DNA from: Nitrospirota bacterium
GTDB lineage: Bacteria; Nitrospirota; JACRHJ01
Length of the DNA stretch: 64,000 nt
Direction: 5' to 3'
Assembly: GCA_963845245.1 (NCBI GenBank)
Contig: CAWJRJ010000019.1
Coordinates: 1,305 to 65,304, forward strand
This document shows positions 40,684 through 50,230 of the stretch, in pieces. Positions within the stretch are counted from its first letter, which is position 1. The number at the start of each line of letters is the position of its first letter. The position numbers and the translations under genes are program-made. The notes below the pieces were generated by a model. That model ran no database searches and was not told the DNA's origin. It was given only the letters and a program-made list of their open reading frames with translations.

Positions 40684-41121
40684 TTATATCGGCGGCGGCA
40701 CGTTAAGAAGAAGCCAGTAAAGCCCTATCTGGCGTACCGCCTCGGTGAACTGCGCGAAGTCCACCGGCTTCCTGATGTAGCTGTTGCAGCCCAGGCTGTA
40801 CCCGTCGATCACGTCGCGTTCTTCCTTGGACGACGTGAGGATTACCACGGGAAGCATCTTTGTCGCCTCGTTCCCGCGCAGTTTCTTTAGCACCTCTATG
40901 CCGTCCATCCTTGGAAGCTTCAGGTCAAGCAACACAAGCATAGGGGTTTCGTTCATGTCGCGGCCCGCAAAGCTCCCTGTGCCGAAGAGGTAGTCCACGG
41001 CCTCCACACCGTCACGCGCCACCACAACCTCGTTCATTATGTTGTTCTTCTTGAGCGCGCGCAGTGTCAGCTCCACGTCGTCAGGGTTATCTTCGACCAG
41101 AAGAATCCTCTTGTCCTTCAT
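40684..41121 (-). CDS. Single-domain response regulator (Rcp1-like)
   Basis: ILLVEDNPDD, LLDLKLP, LTSSKEE, YIRKPVDF. Confidence 0.92.
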   Translation of the reverse strand: MKDKRILLVEDNPDDVELTLRALKKNNIMNEVVVARDGVEAVDYLFGTGSFAGRDMNETPMLVLLDLKLPRMDGIEVLKKLRGNEATKMLPVVILTSSKEERDVIDGYSLGCNSYIRKPVDFAQFTEAVRQIGLYWLLLNVPPPI

Positions 41122-44100
41122 GCCGCCTCCTTATTTGTAGTGGACACACCTTGCCCGACCGTAAAATAGAACGTTGCGCCTTTCTCCACTCCCCCTTCCG
41201 CCCATACCTTACCGCCGTGCCTGGTTATTATACGCTGGACCGTGGCAAGCCCTATGCCTGTTCCCGGGAAGTCAGTGACCGCATGCAACCGCTGGAACGG
41301 CCCGAACAGCTTCTCGCTGTATGCCATGTCGAACCCGGAGCCATCGTCCCTGACAAAATAGGCCTGAGTACCGTCCATCGTTTCCATACCGAACTCTATC
41401 TTCGCAGTCTGATGTTTCGATGTAAACTTCCATGCGTTGCCGAGGAGGTTCTCAAGGACAACCCTCAGAAGTTGCGGGTCGCCTTCCGCGGCCAGCCCTT
41501 CATGTACTATTAGTTCGACCTGGCGTCCGGGCTCCGATTCCCGCAGCCCTTCAGCCACGTGCCGCACAATGGAACTCAAGTCAACAACATTGTTTTGCAT
41601 CTCCCCCCTCGTCACACGGGAGAGTTTCAGAAGGTCGTCTATTAGCTGTCCCATCCTCTGGCTGGCGGCGCGCACCCGGTGGAGACAGTCCCTGCCCCGG
41701 TCGTCCAGTTTCTCCTCGTAGTCTTCCAGTACCGCCTGGCTGAAGCCGTCGATGCTCCGAAGCGGAGACCGCAGGTCGTGGGACACCGAGTAGCAGAACG
41801 CCTCCAATTCCTTGTTAGCGGCAGTGAGTTGGACCGTGCGCTCGACCACACGCTGCTCCAGCTCATCATTCATCCTCATTATGGCCTTCTCGGCCTTCTT
41901 TTTCTCGGTAATGTCGCGGGCAGCAGCAAATACGCCTTTTACATTTCCCGTCTCATCACGGTAGACCGATGCATTGTAAAGTACAGGTGTGACGTGACCT
42001 TCCTTGTGGCGAACCTCAAGCTCATAGTCAAGCACATAACCCGAACTGAACACTTCCTTGTAACCCGCCCTCGCCTTTTCCGGGTCGGTGAAGTAGTCCG
42101 AGAAGTCTGTGCCTACAAGATCGGCACGGTTGCGCCCGGTCACAGCCTCAGTAGCTGCGTTTACGTCGGTTATCTTGCCGTCCGGGCCAATAGTCACAAG
42201 CGGGTCGAGGCTGGCCTCGATTAGGCTTCTGTTGTAAACCCCGGCAAGCCGGAGGGCCTCCTCGGCCTTCTTGCGTTCGAGCAGCCGCCACATGCTTTCC
42301 ATAAGGAGGATCAGCTGCTGGACATCGCCCTGGTCGTACTCTTCGGCTTTGTTGCCTACGCCCGCGACAATAACGATTTTGGATCCATCGAAAACAGGAA
42401 CGTTCATGTGACGCACCAATGCCACGTGGCCCTGCGGGCAACCTTTCTTCCATTGGTTGTCGGCGGCGTAGTCGTTGGTGATGATTGGCCGGCGCTGCCT
42501 GACCGCTTCACCCCATAGTCCGGTGGACTCTACAGGATAAAGAAACGGTTTCTCCGAGATGGCGCACTCTGCCATGGCGGATTTCGACCAAGAGTTCATG
42601 GTAAGGATGCTCTCATCCTCGTTGAGAAACGCCAGGTAGCCTATTTTGCTTTGGGTCAGCCGTACGGCTTCCTCCAAGACGAAATCCGTGACCTCCTGCA
42701 TGGTTGCATCCATCATCTGGTTCAGGTGCAAAAGCGCTTCCATACGCTGGGAGTTAAGCGCGCCCGCCTCATCGGCCCTCTTTCGCTCCGTGATGTCCCT
42801 AGCCGCCGCGAACACGCCGGTTACCCCTCCTGTCTCATCCCTGTAGACGGAAGCATTGTATAATACGGGCGTTGTATGGCCATCCTTGTGGCGGACCTCA
42901 AGCTCGTAGTCAAGCACGTAACCCTCGCGAAACACCTCTTTGTAACCTGTCCTCGCCTTTTCCGGGTCGGTGAAGTAGTCCGAGAAGTCCGTGCCGACAA
43001 GCTCTGCGCGGCTGCGCCCGGTTACGGCCTCAGTCGCCGCGTTCACGTCTGTTATCCTGCCGTCCGGGCCAATCGTCACCAGAGGGTCGAGGCTGGCTTC
43101 AATGAGGCTTCGGTTGTAGGCGCTTGCAAGGTGCAGGGCTTCTTCAGCCCTTGTCCGCTCTTCAACCTCTTCACTGAGGTATTCGTTCACCTCCTTGAGC
43201 TTGGCAGTCCGCTCGTCAACCAATTCCTCCAGGTGCTCGCGGTGTCTGCGAAGGTCGTCCTCCGAACGTTTCAGGGCACGAAAGGCAAGGGCAAAAAAAC
43301 CTATGATAAAACAGACGTTGACAAGTGTGGAAACAGCGGAACCGTATTCTTTTGTCACCAAGCCTTTGCCTATGAAAAAGAGCCTGATTTTGCCCGTGGA
43401 AATCTCTAAAACAATGACTGCGGGGAGAAGCCACCTTGCCAACAACCCTGCCGAACCTTCGTCAGAAGCAATCTTCATTATCCCGAATTCCGGCTGCGAA
43501 AACATTATCCCGAAGAACAACAACAAGAAGGCAAATGAGGTGTGGACCGCTATATGCGTATAACGCACCAATGGAACAAGCGGGATTACCCCATAAATAG
43601 CACCGATTATCGCAAGCAAAGATATAGCGCCCGCGATATCAGTCATGATTTTAACAACAAGACGGTCGTTGCCTTTTTTATAGAAAAAGAGGGCTAGCCC
43701 AAAAAAAACAAGGTTCACACAAGTTACAGGAGCCATCCTGCCGGGGAAAGGCGAGAGTGCGGAGAGTTGCGGGTCGTTGAATAACAGTTGGTCGATACCT
43801 AAATCTACATTGGCGGCATATTCTATGGAGTTAAGTATACCGAGCGTAACTGCGACAAGCGGAAGCGCCTGAGCAACCACCTGAAGTACGGATTTCTCCC
43901 TGTCTCCATACCTTGCGTGTATTGTAAGGGCTATTCCAAGGCAGATAAACGAAATTGCGGTATTGACCTTCATCGAGACATGGCCCGGAATTACGACTTT
44001 CAAGGCAGTTATATCAAAAAACCACCCCACGAGGACCACGACACCGATGAGCGCAACGATGGTGCCGAGCCACCCAGCAACTTTTACAAAGGAATCTTTT

Positions 44101-44129
44101 TTGATTGTCATGAGAAAATTCCTTCTCAT
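41118..44129 (-). CDS. Membrane PAS-GAF-PAS sensor histidine kinase
   Basis: About seven N-terminal TMs; SVSHDLRSPL, NLLGNAWKF, DDGSGFDM, GTGIGLA. Confidence 0.92.
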   Translation of the reverse strand: MRRNFLMTIKKDSFVKVAGWLGTIVALIGVVVLVGWFFDITALKVVIPGHVSMKVNTAISFICLGIALTIHARYGDREKSVLQVVAQALPLVAVTLGILNSIEYAANVDLGIDQLLFNDPQLSALSPFPGRMAPVTCVNLVFFGLALFFYKKGNDRLVVKIMTDIAGAISLLAIIGAIYGVIPLVPLVRYTHIAVHTSFAFLLLFFGIMFSQPEFGIMKIASDEGSAGLLARWLLPAVIVLEISTGKIRLFFIGKGLVTKEYGSAVSTLVNVCFIIGFFALAFRALKRSEDDLRRHREHLEELVDERTAKLKEVNEYLSEEVEERTRAEEALHLASAYNRSLIEASLDPLVTIGPDGRITDVNAATEAVTGRSRAELVGTDFSDYFTDPEKARTGYKEVFREGYVLDYELEVRHKDGHTTPVLYNASVYRDETGGVTGVFAAARDITERKRADEAGALNSQRMEALLHLNQMMDATMQEVTDFVLEEAVRLTQSKIGYLAFLNEDESILTMNSWSKSAMAECAISEKPFLYPVESTGLWGEAVRQRRPIITNDYAADNQWKKGCPQGHVALVRHMNVPVFDGSKIVIVAGVGNKAEEYDQGDVQQLILLMESMWRLLERKKAEEALRLAGVYNRSLIEASLDPLVTIGPDGKITDVNAATEAVTGRNRADLVGTDFSDYFTDPEKARAGYKEVFSSGYVLDYELEVRHKEGHVTPVLYNASVYRDETGNVKGVFAAARDITEKKKAEKAIMRMNDELEQRVVERTVQLTAANKELEAFCYSVSHDLRSPLRSIDGFSQAVLEDYEEKLDDRGRDCLHRVRAASQRMGQLIDDLLKLSRVTRGEMQNNVVDLSSIVRHVAEGLRESEPGRQVELIVHEGLAAEGDPQLLRVVLENLLGNAWKFTSKHQTAKIEFGMETMDGTQAYFVRDDGSGFDMAYSEKLFGPFQRLHAVTDFPGTGIGLATVQRIITRHGGKVWAEGGVEKGATFYFTVGQGVSTTNKEAA

Positions 44130-44365
44130 CCCGGCCCTGTTGCGGGTTCGCCTGTAGACTATAGATATCAGAATATATTGTTAGTATAGCATATTTTAAA
44201 TATATAATTTGAATCTGGCAGGAAACGCACTTATATGGGATGACTCAGATATCCTGCAGCGGTTGTCATAATAACAGCAACAGATTAACTGATTTACTAC
44301 ACTGGTATTTTATGCGTGATATATGATTGGCAGTGCGATAAAGTTCAGAGCATAGATCCTTGTTG

Positions 44366-44671
44366 CTACTGGCCGGTTTTCACCCCGCCGGCCTCGAGTT
44401 CCTTGTTGGCCAGTTCGGCAAGACCCATCTTCTGATAGGCGCTGGAGAGCATGACATGCGCCGAGTCCATATCAGGCTTCAGGCCTATCGACCTGTTGAA
44501 CATTTCCGCAGCCTCAGGATATTTCTGTGCGTCGAAATACTTCTTGCCCTCCACAAAAGACGCCATCGCCCTTTTGTCATCTGACCCGGACTTGACCTTA
44601 TAAACCGAGAAACCGCCAAGAAGAAAACCAAACGCAAGGCTGACCGCAATTGTTATAAGAACTCTCTTCAT
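44366..44671 (-). CDS. Small membrane-anchored TPR protein
   Basis: N-terminal TM plus TPR-like motifs. Confidence 0.72.
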   Translation of the reverse strand: MKRVLITIAVSLAFGFLLGGFSVYKVKSGSDDKRAMASFVEGKKYFDAQKYPEAAEMFNRSIGLKPDMDSAHVMLSSAYQKMGLAELANKELEAGGVKTGQ

Positions 44672-44813
44672 ACGTCCTCCTCGATTATTATTCTTTTATG
44701 GTTACTTATTTTACTTATTTTGAATGAATCCACAACCCTTTTTATCGCAATAGTTGAAAAAAGCCTCAAATGGCTTTACAGGATGCCGGATAGCATTCAA
44801 ACATTAAAATACT

Positions 44814-44842
44814 TTGATGGAATGCCTCCTTTGTGGTATCTT
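44814..44842 (+). promoter_or_regulatory. Putative sigma70 promoter for leader ORF-pal
   Basis: TTGATG-17 nt-TATCTT with extended TG. Confidence 0.45.
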
Positions 44843-44866
44843 TTTATAAAACCTAATGGCACGATA

Positions 44867-45166
44867 ATGAACAAGAAACTTGCACTGATTATTTTTCCCG
44901 TCTGTCTTTCAATCATCCTGCTGGCAGGCAATCTCCCGCGTTTAATAAAACATCATCATTCAAAACCCCACCCTATCATAAAGGCTATCGAAGAGTCGTC
45001 TTCCGAGGATTCCAAGATCTCCGTTGATGATGTCGGCCTCGGCAACAGCCGGATTGATTTTACTCGTGATAAATACTACCTCTCCTTTGAGCCGAAGAGG
45101 GTTTATCACAGCAAATTCAAGCTTGTCAATATAGTAGCCAGACCTCCGCCTACCGTTATTTGCTGA
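44867..45166 (+). CDS. Putative leader/arrest peptide: N-terminal TM/signal, His cluster, C-terminal ARPPP
   Basis: MNKKLALIIFPVCLSIILLAG...KHHHSKPHP...IVARPPPTVIC*; 99 aa, 105 nt upstream of pal. Confidence 0.62.
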   Translation: MNKKLALIIFPVCLSIILLAGNLPRLIKHHHSKPHPIIKAIEESSSEDSKISVDDVGLGNSRIDFTRDKYYLSFEPKRVYHSKFKLVNIVARPPPTVIC

Positions 45167-45271
45167 TCTCCTGTGTCCCCAGTATCGTTTCCACGGATGC
45201 ATTCCAGTACGCGTTTGCTGACAGATCCCTGTTGCACCGGTGGAATAACACTATGAAAAGGAGTGCGGATA

Positions 45272-45841
45272 ATGAGATATTTACGGGCATTACTGTTTTC
45301 AATTATGGTGGTTACCTTTGTATTTGCAGGTTATGGATGTGCCAATAAGCAGCTCAAAAGCGATGGAGGCCAGATAAAACCTTCAACGCCACCAGAGGCG
45401 GCAAAGACTCCTTCCGGAGATACTGATAAGTCGAAGCGTGAATCGAAAGAGATAGAGGCCCCTCCCGGACAGAAAGAGCAACCAGAGCCGGTCGAAACAG
45501 CAAGAAGCGAGAAATCATTACAGGCGATATATTTCGACCTGGACAAATATGACATCAAACCTGACGATGCCAGGATACTGGAAGGAGGGGCGAAATGGAT
45601 AAGGGCCAGAAAACCCGGGCTTGTTATGGTCGAGGGGAACTGCGATGAGCGCGGCACCGTCGAATACAACCTGGCCCTTGGAGAGAGAAGGGCAGAGGCG
45701 GCAAAAAACTACCTTGTTTCGCTGGGCGTTGATGCCAACAAGCTGAAGACGATCAGCTATGGGAAGAGCAAGCCAGTGGACCTCGGGCACAACGAGGAGG
45801 CCTGGGCGAAAAACAGGCGGGATTCTTTCGTCGTTCAATAA
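45272..45841 (+). CDS. pal: Peptidoglycan-associated lipoprotein (OmpA-like domain)
   Basis: GYGC lipobox; IYFDLDKY, VEGNCDERGTVEYNLALGERRA, SYGKSKP, AWAKNRR. Confidence 0.92.
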   Translation: MRYLRALLFSIMVVTFVFAGYGCANKQLKSDGGQIKPSTPPEAAKTPSGDTDKSKRESKEIEAPPGQKEQPEPVETARSEKSLQAIYFDLDKYDIKPDDARILEGGAKWIRARKPGLVMVEGNCDERGTVEYNLALGERRAEAAKNYLVSLGVDANKLKTISYGKSKPVDLGHNEEAWAKNRRDSFVVQ

Positions 45842-45847
45842 GATACC

Positions 45848-45876
45848 AATAAGGGGGGCAAGTTGCCCCCCTTATT
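45848..45876 (+). terminator. Terminator-like hairpin after pal
   Basis: AATAAGGGGGGCAA-g-TTGCCCCCCTTATT. Confidence 0.7.
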
Positions 45877-45998
45877 CATCCCCTCCCAAAAACCTCTCGT
45901 TATTTTCATTTTTTATTGACATATATATAATCTTTACTTGAAAAAAAATATAATATGATTATAATCTAACAACTTTTAATCAAGGAGGGTATAGATAT

Positions 45999-46970
45999 AT
46001 GAAAAAGGGACTTATATTAAGAGCTTTGTTTTCGGCATCATTTGTTTTTGTGGTTGCTTTATGCGCGATGGTAACGGTTTCAGGGAAGGATGCTGCCGCT
46101 GCCGAGGCGACAGTTGCCGCTGCGGACGGTTCTTCTTTCAGTATCTCCGTGGGTTCGTTATTCCTGCGCCGCGAGGGGACGCATAACTATATACTCGTAT
46201 CGAGTATAGGCCCGGGCGGGACAAAGACGGTGCTGGATTCCCAATCCCTGAACCTCGACGATTACGAACCCGGCTTGGATGTCAGCGCCGCATATAAAAG
46301 CAAGGGCGGCCTTGAAGCCAATTTCAGGTATTTCGGCCTAAACTCATGGTCTGAGGATTCAAGGATTGTGCTGAACAGACTTGTTGATAGCAAGCCTATG
46401 AATCCTGGGACCGAAGGCTTAGCCAGCGCTGCCACTATCTACAGCAGCTATAGTTCACAGCTTGACAGCGCTGAGATCAATATGGGATGGTGGCCTGTTG
46501 AATATATCGGGGTATTTGCAGGCCCGCGTCATCTGACTATTGATGAGTCTAACAAGATAACTATTCTTAATGACTCGGTCGCCTTTTCTTCCTCTGCCGA
46601 TAACGAGCTTTGGGGCGGACAGGTAGGAGTAAAGGCAAACCTGTTTAAAACCCGCAGGGGCTGTACAGCCAGTTTATGGGGCAAGGCTGGTTATTACGAT
46701 AACGCGATCTCTACGAAATTCGGCATTCACACTAATTTTGAAGGCTCTTCGATTCAAGCAAGGGGCAAATCCCACACGGGGACATTCGCTGGTGAGGCCG
46801 GCTTTGACTACAAGATCGTCGTAGTGCCGCATGTCGCGCTGTCAACCGGGTACGAGATACTGTGGATTGAAAAAACCGCCCTTGCGACAGCGGGCAATTA
46901 CGACCATATAGTCGACACCGACAGTGTGCTCTATCATGGCGCAAAGGTCGCACTTACGATAGACTGGTAG
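45999..46970 (+). CDS. Outer-membrane beta-barrel protein (BBP7-like)
   Basis: Signal peptide, alternating beta pattern, N.LWGGQVG, GYEILWI, C-terminal aromatic (LTIDW). Confidence 0.72.
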   Translation: MKKGLILRALFSASFVFVVALCAMVTVSGKDAAAAEATVAAADGSSFSISVGSLFLRREGTHNYILVSSIGPGGTKTVLDSQSLNLDDYEPGLDVSAAYKSKGGLEANFRYFGLNSWSEDSRIVLNRLVDSKPMNPGTEGLASAATIYSSYSSQLDSAEINMGWWPVEYIGVFAGPRHLTIDESNKITILNDSVAFSSSADNELWGGQVGVKANLFKTRRGCTASLWGKAGYYDNAISTKFGIHTNFEGSSIQARGKSHTGTFAGEAGFDYKIVVVPHVALSTGYEILWIEKTALATAGNYDHIVDTDSVLYHGAKVALTIDW

Positions 46971-46993
46971 AAGGTCTTTTTTATAAAAAAAGG

Positions 46994-47022
46994 TTGACTC
47001 CGGAAGGTAAATATAGTATAAA
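46994..47022 (+). promoter_or_regulatory. Putative sigma70 promoter of tRNA-Asp
   Basis: TTGACT-17 nt-TATAAA. Confidence 0.6.
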
Positions 47023-47035
47023 TTACGAGCTTTAT

Positions 47036-47112
47036 GGGGTCGTAGCTCAGTCGGTTAGAGCGCCTGCCTGTCACGTAGGAGGTCGCGAGTTCGAGCCTCG
47101 TCGACCCCGCCA
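47036..47112 (+). tRNA. tRNA-Asp (GTC)
   Basis: GGGGTCG/CGACCCC acceptor, CCTGC-CTGTCAC-GTAGG anticodon arm, GTTCGAG T-loop, CCA. Confidence 0.96.
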
Positions 47113-47169
47113 TAAAGAATAAAGGGTTACGGTTCATCCCGTAGCCCTTTTGTTTTATGTTCAGACAAT

Positions 47170-47207
47170 AAAACAGCGGGATGGCACTCTGGCCATCCCG
47201 CTGTTTT
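47170..47207. terminator. Bidirectional terminator
   Basis: AAAACAGCGGGATGGC-actctg-GCCATCCCGCTGTTTT. Confidence 0.75.
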
Positions 47208-47236
47208 CATTTGAAAAGTCTTATGCTAACCCCGGA

Positions 47237-47659
47237 TCAGGCGCACCCGACGACAAGGACCGGGCATGGCGCGTTCTTGATGACCTTGCCGGTAATATTC
47301 CCGCCGAGAAGCCTCATCAGGAAGCTGCTGTTGTCCTTCTCAATTATTATCAGGTCGCACTTTTCCTCCCTTGCGACCTCCACTATCTTCTTGTCCGCAT
47401 CGCCTTCTTCGAGCCTGGTCTTTACCAGGGCCCTCTCGGAAGTCGCGGTCTTGTTGGCCTGACGGATGGCGGCCTGCGCGCCTGAATCAAGGACGTCGCC
47501 GATGTTCTTCACACCCACAAGCTCCAGGTCACCCTCGTAAGGCGGTATGACCTTCACCACAGTTATCCATGCGCCTTCGTCCTGTGCAAGCTTAATGCCC
47601 TTCAAAAGGGTTTCATTAGATTTATGCAGCGCGACCAGGATTTTCCTGAAGCCTCTCAT
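47237..47659 (-). CDS. Universal stress protein
   Basis: RKILVAL...CDLIII...G.ITGKVIKNAPCPVLVV. Confidence 0.88.
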   Translation of the reverse strand: MRGFRKILVALHKSNETLLKGIKLAQDEGAWITVVKVIPPYEGDLELVGVKNIGDVLDSGAQAAIRQANKTATSERALVKTRLEEGDADKKIVEVAREEKCDLIIIEKDNSSFLMRLLGGNITGKVIKNAPCPVLVVGCA

Positions 47660-47663
47660 AATA

Positions 47664-48524
47664 TTACCTCACTACGAGTACGGGACACGGCGAGTTCATA
47701 ATCACGCGCTCAGTCGTGCTGCCCATTATAGCCTTGTTCACCCCGGTCCATCCGAAGGTACCCATCACGATCAGGTCCTTCCTGAGTTTTGCGGCATTGT
47801 CAACCACCCTGTCGGCCGCGCTTCCCTCCTGGACCATAGTCGCCACGGTAAAACCGTTTTCGGCGGCCGTATTACGGGCATCCTCCACCACTTTTTCCGC
47901 TTCGTCGAACATGCTTTTCTTTATAGACTCCGTCCTCATGAAGCCTATCATTTCCTCGTACCTCGGCATCGCATAGAGGACAGTGACTTCGCCGCCGTTC
48001 TCGCCTGCGAACTGCCCGGCCTTTATCAGGGCCTTCTTGCTGTTCTCGGAGCCATCGAAGGCTACCAGCACCGACTTGTACTCACCGGTGCAGTCGCTAC
48101 ACGGTTTCTTCACCACCAGAACATCGCATGGCGAGGAGGCTATGACACTTGCCGTAACGCTCCCCATTATCAGCCTCTTTATGCCGCGCCTGCCGTGGGT
48201 GCCCATCGCGATAAGCCCCGCGCCACGCTCGCGCGCCACAGTGTTAATTATCTCCGGCGGTTCGCCCTGGCAGACAAGGCTCTCAAGCTCAATGCCGAAC
48301 TCGGCGTTGTACTTTTCCCTGGTCTGCATGCAAAGCTTGTTGCCAACCTCAAACCTCTTCTCAAGCTGGACAGGGGCTATTCCGAACTCCTCCTCGTCGA
48401 AATATACTGCGTGGACCATAATGACTTTGCCACCGTGCAGTTTGGCTCTTTTGGAGGCGTCTATCAGGGCGGCCTTACTGTACTCAGAGCCGTCAAAACC
48501 AACTACTATTGTCTCGTACATCAA
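47664..48524 (-). CDS. Tandem universal stress protein
   Basis: Two USP domains (IVVGFDGS...MGTHGRRG...GSVT; VLVAFDGS...MGTFG...GSTT). Confidence 0.9.
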   Translation of the reverse strand: MMYETIVVGFDGSEYSKAALIDASKRAKLHGGKVIMVHAVYFDEEEFGIAPVQLEKRFEVGNKLCMQTREKYNAEFGIELESLVCQGEPPEIINTVARERGAGLIAMGTHGRRGIKRLIMGSVTASVIASSPCDVLVVKKPCSDCTGEYKSVLVAFDGSENSKKALIKAGQFAGENGGEVTVLYAMPRYEEMIGFMRTESIKKSMFDEAEKVVEDARNTAAENGFTVATMVQEGSAADRVVDNAAKLRKDLIVMGTFGWTGVNKAIMGSTTERVIMNSPCPVLVVR

Positions 48525-49307
48525 TGTGCCCCCCCGCCCTTTTTGAACACCAGACCGACGCCAAAACCCGCGCCGAGAGCTGCTAAAATGGAGAATATGC
48601 CGTAGAGCGCGCCGTTGTTCTTGGCCATGCCGGCAAGGTACTTCACAACCCCGACCTGCTCGACCAGTACCTTCGAAGTCGCCTGTTCAACCACCTTTCC
48701 GCCTTTCACGGCATACACCGTTACGAGGTAGTCTCCGGGAGGTGCCTGGTAGGGCCATGCAAACTTCATGTAATATGTATGCTTGCCGCCGGATTCGCCC
48801 GAGGTAAATCCCCCCTCGGTGGATTCGAACAGTTTGGAATGCTCTTTATACTTTATGAACTCGCCGAACCACTTGTCTTTAGCCGCGCTGTCCGCAACCG
48901 GTGACAGTTCCGCGTGTTTGCCCAGGGCCGGGTAGCCTATGGTGTACTTCTCGAGTTCATCGGATGCCATCAGCTTGTTCAGGTCCTTTGTGGCGCGAAG
49001 CATATAGAGGTTCGGTGTGTTTTCTATTGTCAAGCGTGCCCACGTTCATCCAGAGGAACCCGCTGACCTTGCCCTTCTGCTTGAGCGTCTGATGAGCTTC
49101 CGGCGAGGCTATCTTGACCACCAGCTCCACGTCCGGGTCGCAGATGCCACGCACGCTGACCTCGCTCCCGTGGTAGAAGGAGTCAATGGTTATATGGTCG
49201 TGGTTCGCCTTTGCCGTCAGTTCCGCTGAGGCCTCTTTAAGGGGCGAAAATGACGCCAGTACCAGTACTACTGCTGCTATAATCAATGTCTTGAATGTCG
49301 TCTTCAT
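48521..49307 (-). CDS. TIGR02186-family membrane protein (frameshift near 49025)
   Basis: Signal peptide, ITIDSFYHG, KGKVSGFLWMN, WPYQAPPGDY, C-terminal TM; standard partner of TauE. Confidence 0.8.
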
Positions 49308-49308
49308 T

Positions 49309-50230
49309 TTAATGTCCGCCTCCCACACCTAAAAGCATCGATGGCTCCAGCGTCACATCGAATACTATCTTTACAGTAACCACAAGCACTATGATTGCAA
49401 GCAGGACCTTCAAGCTGGTCGGCCTTTAGCTTCCGGCCGAAAACAGTGCCGACCTGGGCCCCTAACGTCGAGCCCACCAAGAGAAGCACCGCAAGCGTGA
49501 AGTCCACGGTATGGTTAGTGTATGACTGCAGGAATGTAACCTCTATGCATGTGAAAAGTATCTGGAAAAGGCTGGTCCCGACAACCACGTGCATCGGCAT
49601 CCTCAATATGTAGACCATGACAGGCACCATGAGGAAGCCGCCGCCCACGCCCATTATCGCGGCCAGGACGCCAACAAACCAGCCGAAGAATATCGGAAGG
49701 ATAAGCGAGTGGGTGACACCGGACTTCTCGAACCTCGTCTGCATGGGAAGCTTTTGCAGAAACGCGCCGAATTTTGATTCCCCGGCGGGTTTGGCCGACA
49801 CCGCGGCCTCTTTCTTCTTCATGCTCTGGATGCTTTCAATCAACATATATACACCGACGATGCCGAGCATCAGGATATATGTCATCTTTATCACGAAGTC
49901 GGCATTGCCCATGGCCTTTAGAAACTTCATAAGCTGGACGCCGACCATGCCCCCGGTGAAACCGCCGACAAGCAGGTAGATGCCCATCTTGAAATCGACG
50001 TTGCCAAGCTTCCAGTGGGCATAAGTGCCGGATGTGGACGCCGCAACAATCTGGTTGGAATCCGTGGCGGCAGCGACGGTTGAAGGTATGCCCAACATTA
50101 TAAGCAGCGGCGTCATAAGAAAGCCGCCACCCACTCCGAAAAGACCTGAAAGAAGCCCCACACCCAGGCCCAGGCCCACGGGTAACAGGATGTTTACACT
50201 GGTTAATGCGACTGGCAGATACAAATACAC
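49309..50230 (-). CDS. Sulfite exporter TauE/SafE (TSUP) family protein (frameshift near 49410)
   Basis: SGLFGVGGGFLMTP and IMGVGGGFLMVP repeats, VVVGTSLFQ. Confidence 0.9.

Follow-up and report, generated by a model that had tools for sequence, protein, structure and literature searches.

A candidate RxPP-type arrest leader heading a second pal gene in a Nitrospirota bacterium

Ribosome arrest peptides were long known only as feedback sensors of Sec- and YidC-dependent export. In SecM-secA and MifM-yidC2, an N-terminal export or insertion signal is combined with a C-terminal arrest sequence, and the stalled ribosome exposes the ribosome binding site of the downstream gene. Work from 2022 to 2025 has extended this picture, as small exported peptides ending in R-x-P-P were also found to precede metal, TonB and redox genes. 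The Tol-Pal system is central to envelope integrity and cell division. The present analysis concerns a 64,000-nucleotide (nt) stretch of a Nitrospirota genome (GenBank assembly GCA_963845245.1, contig CAWJRJ010000019.1, positions 1,305 to 65,304 of the forward strand), hereafter the window. In the window, a short open reading frame (ORF), referred to as the leader, lies upstream of a gene for the peptidoglycan-associated lipoprotein Pal. The leader is similar in size to MifM, which has about 95 residues. It has, however, no sequence relationship with SecM or MifM and no match to the Pfam families SecM or SecM_small, and the gene that it would regulate lies outside the export machinery.

Among the closest described systems are the RAPP/RGPP small proteins (Fujiwara et al. 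2025, PMC12992588). These proteins share with the leader a small ORF with an N-terminal localisation signal and a near-C-terminal R-x-P-P, a same-strand position immediately before another gene, and membership in a lineage-specific family without similarity outside the motif. The leader differs in its RPPP core (RAPP in one distant member), in its target pal, and in that its arrest is only predicted. RAPP-like motifs are depleted in proteomes, but C-terminal RAPP and RGPP are overrepresented in small secretory or membrane proteins whose ORFs precede functionally diverse genes (PMC12992588). In ApdA, ApdP and ApcA, the Arg of the motif is irreplaceable, and in the stalled ribosome the third codon of the motif occupies the P site and the fourth the A site (PMC12992588). 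The variant of most relevance here is the ApdP substitution A132P, which creates RPPP and keeps the arrest (2.4 vs 1.9 units in Bacillus subtilis, intermediate in Escherichia coli); the ApdA substitution A121P gave an intermediate, partly kept arrest, and random-library screens yielded RxPP with G, A, S or P as x (PMC12992588). RPPP is also among the RAPP-like motifs listed by PMC10987492. The arrest-type C-terminus proposed in an earlier sequence-only reading of the window is supported to the extent that RPPP is a documented arrest-permissive variant of RAPP (PMC12992588). A two-module model for RAPP peptides additionally proposes a role of the upstream residues (PMC10951233).

Members of the ApdA/ApdP/RQH family (Fujiwara 2024, PMC10987492; Morici 2024, PMC10951233) likewise consist of a signal or transmembrane segment, a spacer and a C-terminal R-x-P-P. 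Their ORFs precede secA, secDF or yidC, and they regulate the localisation machinery by feedback, whereas the target of the leader is an outer-membrane lipoprotein, and they have no sequence homology with the leader. The uA_LPPP upstream ORFs (uORFs) of Planctomycetota also bear a signal and have a conserved x-P-P-P among their last 15 residues, and toeprinting placed the third motif codon in the P site (PMC10987492). In contrast to the leader, they have Leu instead of Arg, precede secA, and stall E. coli ribosomes only in vitro without elongation factor P (EF-P), i.e., the stall is EF-P-sensitive in E. coli (PMC10987492). CutF of Rhodobacter capsulatus, a DUF2946 protein encoded upstream of cutO, is exported and ends in a Pro-rich stretch; both its translation and its export by Sec are required to open a stem-loop that shields the Shine-Dalgarno (SD) sequence of the next gene (PMC9973294). 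CutF has a CxxxC copper site and the DUF2946 domain, but the leader has neither, and no conserved SD-shielding stem-loop was found across the leader relatives. No link of Tol-Pal or the peptidoglycan-associated lipoprotein with arrest peptides was found in the literature searched, although the supplements of PMC12992588 and PMC10987492 may list more downstream classes. In the main text of PMC12992588, OmpA and peptidoglycan do not occur, and the supplements might list such a class.

Compared with these systems, the leader is, on balance, probably a cis-acting RAPP-like (RxPP) arrest peptide that heads a two-gene unit with a second pal gene (Table 1). Its N-terminus reads MNKK, followed by a hydrophobic stretch of 17-18 residues, LALIIFPVCLSIILLAG, which is kept in 20 of 20 family members with P11, C13, L19 and G20 nearly invariant. 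A His cluster, KHHHSKPHP, occupies residues 28-36, and in the juxtamembrane motif P36 is invariant and K39, E43 and S44 are nearly so. The C-terminus reads ...NIVARPPPTVIC (also given, up to the stop, as ...FKLVNIVARPPPTVIC). R92, P93, P94 and P95 are encoded by AGA CCT CCG CCT at 45140-45151, and TVIC and the stop codon follow. The ORF with its N-terminal hydrophobic helix and R-P-P-P four residues before the stop was thus confirmed at the positions originally proposed, as were the 105-nt spacer (45167-45271) and the AAGGAG ribosome binding site in front of pal. AlphaFold2, run with the family alignment, returned the helix at residues 3-21 as the sole secondary-structure element (mean predicted local distance difference test score 59, predicted template modelling score 0.23), and the leader is without a predicted fold beyond this helix. 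Because the ratio of nonsynonymous to synonymous substitution rates (dN/dS) against relatives is 0.17-0.72 overall (0.38-0.42 against the close relatives L024 and L025) and homologues exist in seven other genomes, the comparison indicates that the leader ORF is a real coding sequence.

The leader family is tiny and lineage-restricted according to the searches made. In a profile search of 1.84 billion representatives, 11 clusters were obtained at E <= 0.001, 10 of these at E <= 1e-10. A word-indexed search of 5.8 billion proteins gave three relatives with 59-69% identity besides the window's own product. When 61 related genomes were searched, homologues with 34-42% identity were found in the seven other genomes mentioned above, all of which belong to the family-level group of the window genome; G001 and G006 each contain two copies. 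The 49 Nitrospirota genomes outside this group gave no leader match better than E = 0.11. At the level of species genomes, the leader gene is present in 8 of 12 within one GTDB Nitrospirota class. Related loci were gathered with alignment A2 as the query (5 and 3 loci). For the comparisons below, alignment A3 with 20 family sequences was used, and DNA context was available for 13 loci.

Only four columns of A3 are invariant, namely P36, R92, P94 and P95. P93 is kept in 19 of the 20 sequences. Only P0013, the most distant member (E = 4.7e-4), departs from this; its end, ...ISARAPPV, places RAPP at that position. In a return search of 401 Nitrospirota genomes including that of the window, P0013 matched only the leader family, and no genome outside family f1 was hit. 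The mean pairwise column identity is 0.97 for RPPP, 0.57 for the juxtamembrane motif PxI(L)KS(L)xESS, 0.52 for the hydrophobic segment, 0.32 for the His-cluster region, 0.30 for the middle and 0.28 for the tail after the motif. The pattern foreseen in the sequence-only reading was thus recovered: R-[P/A]-P-P and the N-terminal hydrophobic segment are kept and the middle varies, as does the tail. Between the motif and the stop there are 1-4 residues in 17 of 20 sequences and 9, 22 and 22 in the other three. Counted from the MNKK-type start, the Arg of the motif is found at residue 90-94, and the total leader length is constant (96-101 residues). In one close relative (L025:827-1234), the leader stop after RPPP is lost; the frame reads through the spacer for at least 22 extra residues and ends about 24 nt before the pal start.

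The codons of the motif are not fixed. At R92, both Arg codon families are used among the 13 loci (AGA 2, CGC 2, AGG 6, CGG 3), and all four Pro codons are in use at the Pro positions. Since Arg codons from both families occur and the Pro codons drift, codon usage indicates that R-x-P-P is selected as a peptide, the amino acids being kept rather than an RNA element. In the clade of the window, the C-terminal part of the ORF has a dN/dS of 0.21-0.29, compared with 0.43-1.03 for the middle. Among pairs from genus g5, the three that have diverged most give values of about 0.2 along most of the ORF, and closer pairs give 0.35-0.72.

The gene downstream of the leader is a true Pal lipoprotein according to its profile matches (Pfam OmpA, 1.1e-18; NCBIfam TIGR02802 Pal_lipo, 133.3 bits vs a cut-off of 125.35), and G22-C23 is invariant in 13 Pal sequences. 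A pal start is found downstream on the same strand in 10 of the 13 loci, which answers the question of the downstream gene raised by the sequence-only reading. In nine of these loci, the start lies 55-106 nt past the leader stop, the tenth being L025, which lacks that stop; most genera have spacers of 55-62 nt. The pal gene of the window had been called an orphan. It has indeed no tol gene beside it within 41000-49500. However, because the same genome carries a canonical tolA-like/tolB/pal/cpoB cluster on contig C17, without a leader and with a tolB-pal spacer of 128 nt, the gene is to be regarded as a second pal paralogue (pal2) and not as an orphan. Both a tolB-adjacent pal and a leader-pal unit are also present in G001, G006 and G007. 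A tree of 13 Pal sequences separates a tolB-adjacent clade from a leader-associated clade, each with 95/94 support, and the window Pal belongs to the leader-associated clade.

The pal2 paralogue was never seen without the leader, and the leaderless genomes of the class (G002, G008 and G010) have only the tolB-adjacent pal; in G003, no pal was found at E <= 1e-30. A special arrangement occurs on contig C133 of G005 (L017:337-4564), in which tolA-like, tolB, leader, pal and cpoB/ybgF-like genes follow one another. The Pal encoded there belongs to the tolB-adjacent clade, and therefore the leader is tied to the 5' end of pal in both paralogue clades. The leader may have arisen in the tol-pal locus before the duplication of pal. 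Between tolB and pal of G000 (the window genome), G001, G006 and G007, no relic of the leader was found, and promoter-like sequence is present there instead.

The locus shares with described RxPP uORFs a small upstream ORF on the same strand, an N-terminal hydrophobic segment and a conserved R-x-P-P near the C-terminus. Because R-x-P-P is invariant with synonymous drift, the RAPP variant lies in the same place, the tail is variable, a conserved targeting signal stands at a fixed distance from the motif, no fold is predicted and pal is strictly linked, an RxPP arrest leader suits the observations at the peptide level, for which other explanations are hard to find. Starting from the established anatomy, peptide-level selection on R-x-P-P and strict leader-pal linkage, we infer a stall, its release, a coupling to pal translation and a sensed cellular state. 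The nascent leader would carry its membrane-targeting segment at the N-terminus. Once the ribosome is at I-V-A-R-P-P-P, so that Pro94 occupies the P site and Pro95-tRNA the A site, formation of the peptide bond would be slowed or blocked, as for the RAPP peptides. The pause would be ended by the pull from Sec- or YidC-dependent membrane engagement of the N-terminus. As long as it lasts, the paused ribosome would cover the last codons and the stop region, and initiation at pal would be favoured because, in the window, no other region complements the pal SD and AUG as well as the covered one. It is doubtful, though conceivable, that the leader further serves as an envelope monitoring substrate. 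In that case, the pull that frees the nascent chain from the RPPP arrest would come from membrane insertion, from export, or from a contact of its conserved transmembrane and juxtamembrane part with the envelope or linked to Tol, and faltering insertion, export or Tol-linked interaction would prolong the stall and raise the supply of a spare Pal.

Folding predictions for the window agree with such a coupling in part. In the minimum free energy (MFE) structure, CUCCU at 45168-45172 pairs with the pal SD, and the last leader codons pair with the pal AUG. Of 120 sliding windows compared as complements of the pal initiation region, the stall zone ranks first. When the footprint of a ribosome centred on Pro94 was masked, the unpaired probability of the AUG rose from 0.01 to 0.56, but that of the SD stayed at 0.27-0.29. 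For six spacers of genera g5 and g2, RNAalifold returned a main helix between AUYUCCU and the SD (7 of 10 predicted pairs, weak energy). AUYUCCU comprises the last two leader codons and the U of the stop, and a one-sided C-to-U change leaves the helix intact in 6 of 6. These models make an anti-SD immediately 3' of the Pro codons plausible. In genus g5, the pal SD is mostly predicted to be free. In five of the eight other loci (L003, L004, L005, L006 and L007), the strongest complement of the pal initiation region is formed by leader codons of about 13-25, which encode the ...LGANLP... stretch of the hydrophobic segment (AACCUCCC vs GGAGGUU, down to -23.8 kcal/mol). This complement is probably incidental to the conserved N-L-P codons.

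A long imperfect stem in the spacer (45189-45245) had also been pointed out. It is indeed predicted, but it is marginal against shuffled sequences (z = -1.77; 12 of 200 fold as well), and the folding of the region 45130-45285 is unremarkable (z = -0.66; 52 of 200 shuffles). The stem is not kept in the two closest relatives with DNA (L024 and L025), and the 55-62 nt spacers of other genera leave no room for it. It is lineage-specific at best on this comparison, and as a regulatory switch it was rejected, being unconserved in L024 and L025 and absent elsewhere.

Several observations weigh against an arrest leader. Its core is not one of the robust, proven types RAPP, RGPP, RAGP or RAPG, since 19 of 20 members have RPPP and one has RAPP. 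The sequence constraint on the hydrophobic and juxtamembrane parts (P11, C13, L19, G20, P36, K39, E43 and S44) exceeds what a bare signal and spacer would need. In a proxy proteome of the window genome (2532 long ORFs), RPPP occurs about as often as expected (observed/expected 1.10; 6 vs 5.5). The ratios of the other motifs are 0.20 for RAPP, 0.42 for RGPP, 0.14 for RSPP, 0.16 for RDPP and 1.7 for PPP. Because RPPP is undepleted and an EF-P gene is present in the genome, RPPP alone is unlikely to be a strong block, and an arrest would probably need the conserved upstream residues (I89, V87). At the RNA level, the stall zone ranks only 8th to 35th as a complement of the pal initiation region in eight other loci, pairing of the SD with the stall zone is part of the full-mRNA MFE structure in only three of nine loci (window, L002 and L003), and masking by a stalled ribosome does not uniformly free the SD or the AUG across relatives. 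Moreover, the RNAalifold helix of the six spacers contains no compensatory pairs. As a general scheme, a uniform SD-sequestering helix opened by the stalled ribosome found no support across the relatives.

Leader copies without pal belong to the same side of the balance. A second leader type of 96 residues, ending in ...TVYIFARPPPEVS before its stop, is intact without pal at L015:3973-4700 (G001), L016:5148-5800 (G006) and L026:842-1464 (metagenome). Behind it, G001 and G006 have a 12-codon relic of a pal start (an SD, then GTG KPFRSFFGPYW and a stop) and then an efflux gene of the DHA2/EmrB type of the major facilitator superfamily (MFS; TIGR00711, 304 bits), which has promoter-like sequence of its own. 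In L026, different sequence follows after 102 shared spacer bases. These copies could represent a portable leader, a decaying duplicate or, equally, an independent small protein. A similar promoter-plus-palindrome element (TTGCTTGAAA ... CCCC-n-GGGG ... TATATTA) precedes both the second leader copy and the MFS gene.

The last of these options leads to an alternative for the whole family. The ORF might encode a genuine small envelope protein, membrane-anchored or periplasmic, which acts with Pal2 or Tol-Pal in an ordinary operon, with RPPP as a structural or binding motif. This is possible, if unlikely. It would account for the sequence conservation of the hydrophobic segment (P11, C13) and of P-x-I-L-K-S-L-x-E-S-S, for the constant length (96-101 residues), and for the dN/dS of about 0.2 that most of the ORF shows in the three g5 pairs of greatest divergence. 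The position in G005, inside tolB-leader-pal-cpoB, is like that of a cluster member, intact copies persist where pal is lost, and RPPP is undepleted in the proteome. However, such a protein gives no reason for an irreplaceable Arg, nor for R-x-P-P being the only invariant block with the RAPP variant in the same place. The residues after the motif and the position of the stop vary (1 to 22 residues), the middle is nearly neutral in the window clade (dN/dS up to 1.03), and there is neither a predicted fold beyond the N-terminal helix nor a known family. Far less probable still, and disfavoured here, is a metal-responsive uORF of the CutF/CruR (DUF2946) type, in which the His cluster would bind periplasmic metal and modulate stalling. 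The cluster noticed in the sequence-only reading, KHHHSKPHP, is present in the window leader, a second, unrelated RPPP-ended ORF of the genome is also His-rich after its hydrophobic segment, and the general layout of CutF is alike (PMC9973294). The idea is nevertheless without basis, because the His cluster is not conserved in the family (column identity 0.22, 0.12 and 0.37 for H29, H30 and H31) and DUF2946 is not matched (E <= 1), nor is any other Pfam family, in 20 of 20 members. There is also no CxxxC motif, and the downstream gene is pal and not a metal gene.

Another possibility is that pal is translationally coupled to the leader and nothing is sensed, either because EF-P-dependent slowing at PPP occurs before the stop or because the terminating ribosome opens the pal ribosome binding site. 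This would set a fixed pal2 output or tie pal2 to the general translation capacity. The anti-SD-like AUYUCCU overlapping the last codons and the stop in six spacers, and the short spacers of 55-62 nt in most genera, are compatible with it. So are the presence of an EF-P gene together with undepleted RPPP, and the EF-P sensitivity of an LPPP uORF in E. coli (PMC10987492). Nevertheless, passive coupling is quite unlikely, as it leaves unexplained the invariant Arg, encoded by both codon families, the RAPP variant, and the conservation of a membrane-targeting N-terminus whose distance to the motif is fixed. An RxPP arrest leader that acts in cis on pal is the reading preferred here.

Table 1 Position of the leader-pal features in the window
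Feature	Coordinates	Strand	Description
Putative sigma-70-type promoter of the leader-pal unit	44814..44842	+	TTGATG 44814-44819, 17 nt, TG-n-TATCTT, -10 hexamer 44837-44842
Leader ORF, 99 residues	44867..45166	+	ATG 44867, TGA 45164-45166; no Pfam or NCBIfam family matched
N-terminal hydrophobic segment, residues 5-22	44879..44932	+	Signal peptide or signal anchor; AlphaFold2 helix at residues 3-21
Juxtamembrane motif P-x-I-[LIF]-K-[SA]-[LI]-x-E-S-S, residues 36-46	44972..45004	+	Conserved in the family
Candidate arrest module I89-V-A-R92-P-P-P95	45131..45151	+	R 45140-45142, PPP 45143-45151
Segment complementary to the pal initiation region	45155..45172	+	GUUAUUUGC (last codons) and CUCCU 45168-45172 just after the stop
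Imperfect spacer stem-loop	45189..45245	+	Predicted; arms TTCCACGGATGCA (from 45189) and TGCACCGGTGGAA (to 45245)
Shine-Dalgarno sequence AAGGAG of pal	45258-45263	+	8 nt before the pal ATG at 45272
pal paralogue (Pal2), 189-residue lipoprotein	45272..45841	+	...FAGYGC, lipobox-like Cys23; OmpA-like peptidoglycan-binding domain
Terminator-like hairpin	45848..45876	.	13-pair stem; closes the leader-pal unit

The leader-pal unit of the window would be transcribed from the putative promoter listed in Table 1. The site was assigned by inspection of the sequence and was not returned by a consensus scan; the arrangement TTGA(T/A)G-17-TATCTT also occurs upstream of the leader in L024 and L025, and promoter-like hexamers are found directly upstream of each leader. 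An Rfam search of 44600-46000 gave no family and two sub-threshold matches only, both at the pal terminator. Among the sequencing runs listed for this DNA there was no RNA run, and one DNA run contained a small share of it (0.13). Further downstream, a 323-residue ORF (45999-46970, plus strand) has a signal-like N-terminus, the C-terminal residues ...ALTIDW and no Pfam or NCBIfam match; its product may be an outer-membrane beta-barrel. It is preceded by a strong promoter-like site of its own, TTGAAA-16-TATAAT (11 of 12, 45938-45965), and is absent from the otherwise syntenic L025. A tRNA-Asp (GTC) gene follows the pal region at 47036-47112 on the plus strand, and the same tRNA region stands directly after pal in L025.

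A second family of small RPPP-ended ORFs, with no detectable relation to the leader, was encountered in the window genome at C27:14011-14298 (L040:3012-3299), in a copy on C28 (L043:1378-1668) and in G004 (L042:1480-1776, minus strand). Its members have a hydrophobic N-terminus and a His-rich stretch, and they end in ...RDVIRPPPV, ...SDVIRPPPA and ...DTIRPPPDCRDRA, each followed by the stop. D-x-I-R-P-P-P is invariant in all three sequences. The C28 copy and the G004 copy are followed within about 70 nt by an SD and a small signal-bearing ORF (M..LK......VLSVAGL.FSD...), and for the C27 copy only an SD is seen before the contig end. The ORF on contig C27 has no homologue in the protein database searched. 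For the leader itself, the nearest named clusters in the ESM Atlas, to be taken as a lead only, were SecM_small (0.92), CzcI (0.91) and a cluster named after DUF2946 (0.91).

For annotation, the analysis offers an explanation of a "hypothetical protein" and describes two pal paralogues in these genomes, one of which has a putative control element of its own. The leader family would escape motif searches that cover only RAPP or RGPP. The role of the leader is a prediction from sequence for an uncultured lineage. If the leader does act as an envelope monitor, it would be the first arrest peptide to serve outer-membrane tethering instead of the Sec/YidC machinery or metal homeostasis, and the other RPPP-ended family of this genome would suggest that RPPP modules are in use across the lineage. 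A conserved RPPP leader tied to pal would extend the logic of arrest peptides to the Tol-Pal outer-membrane tether and to Nitrospirota.

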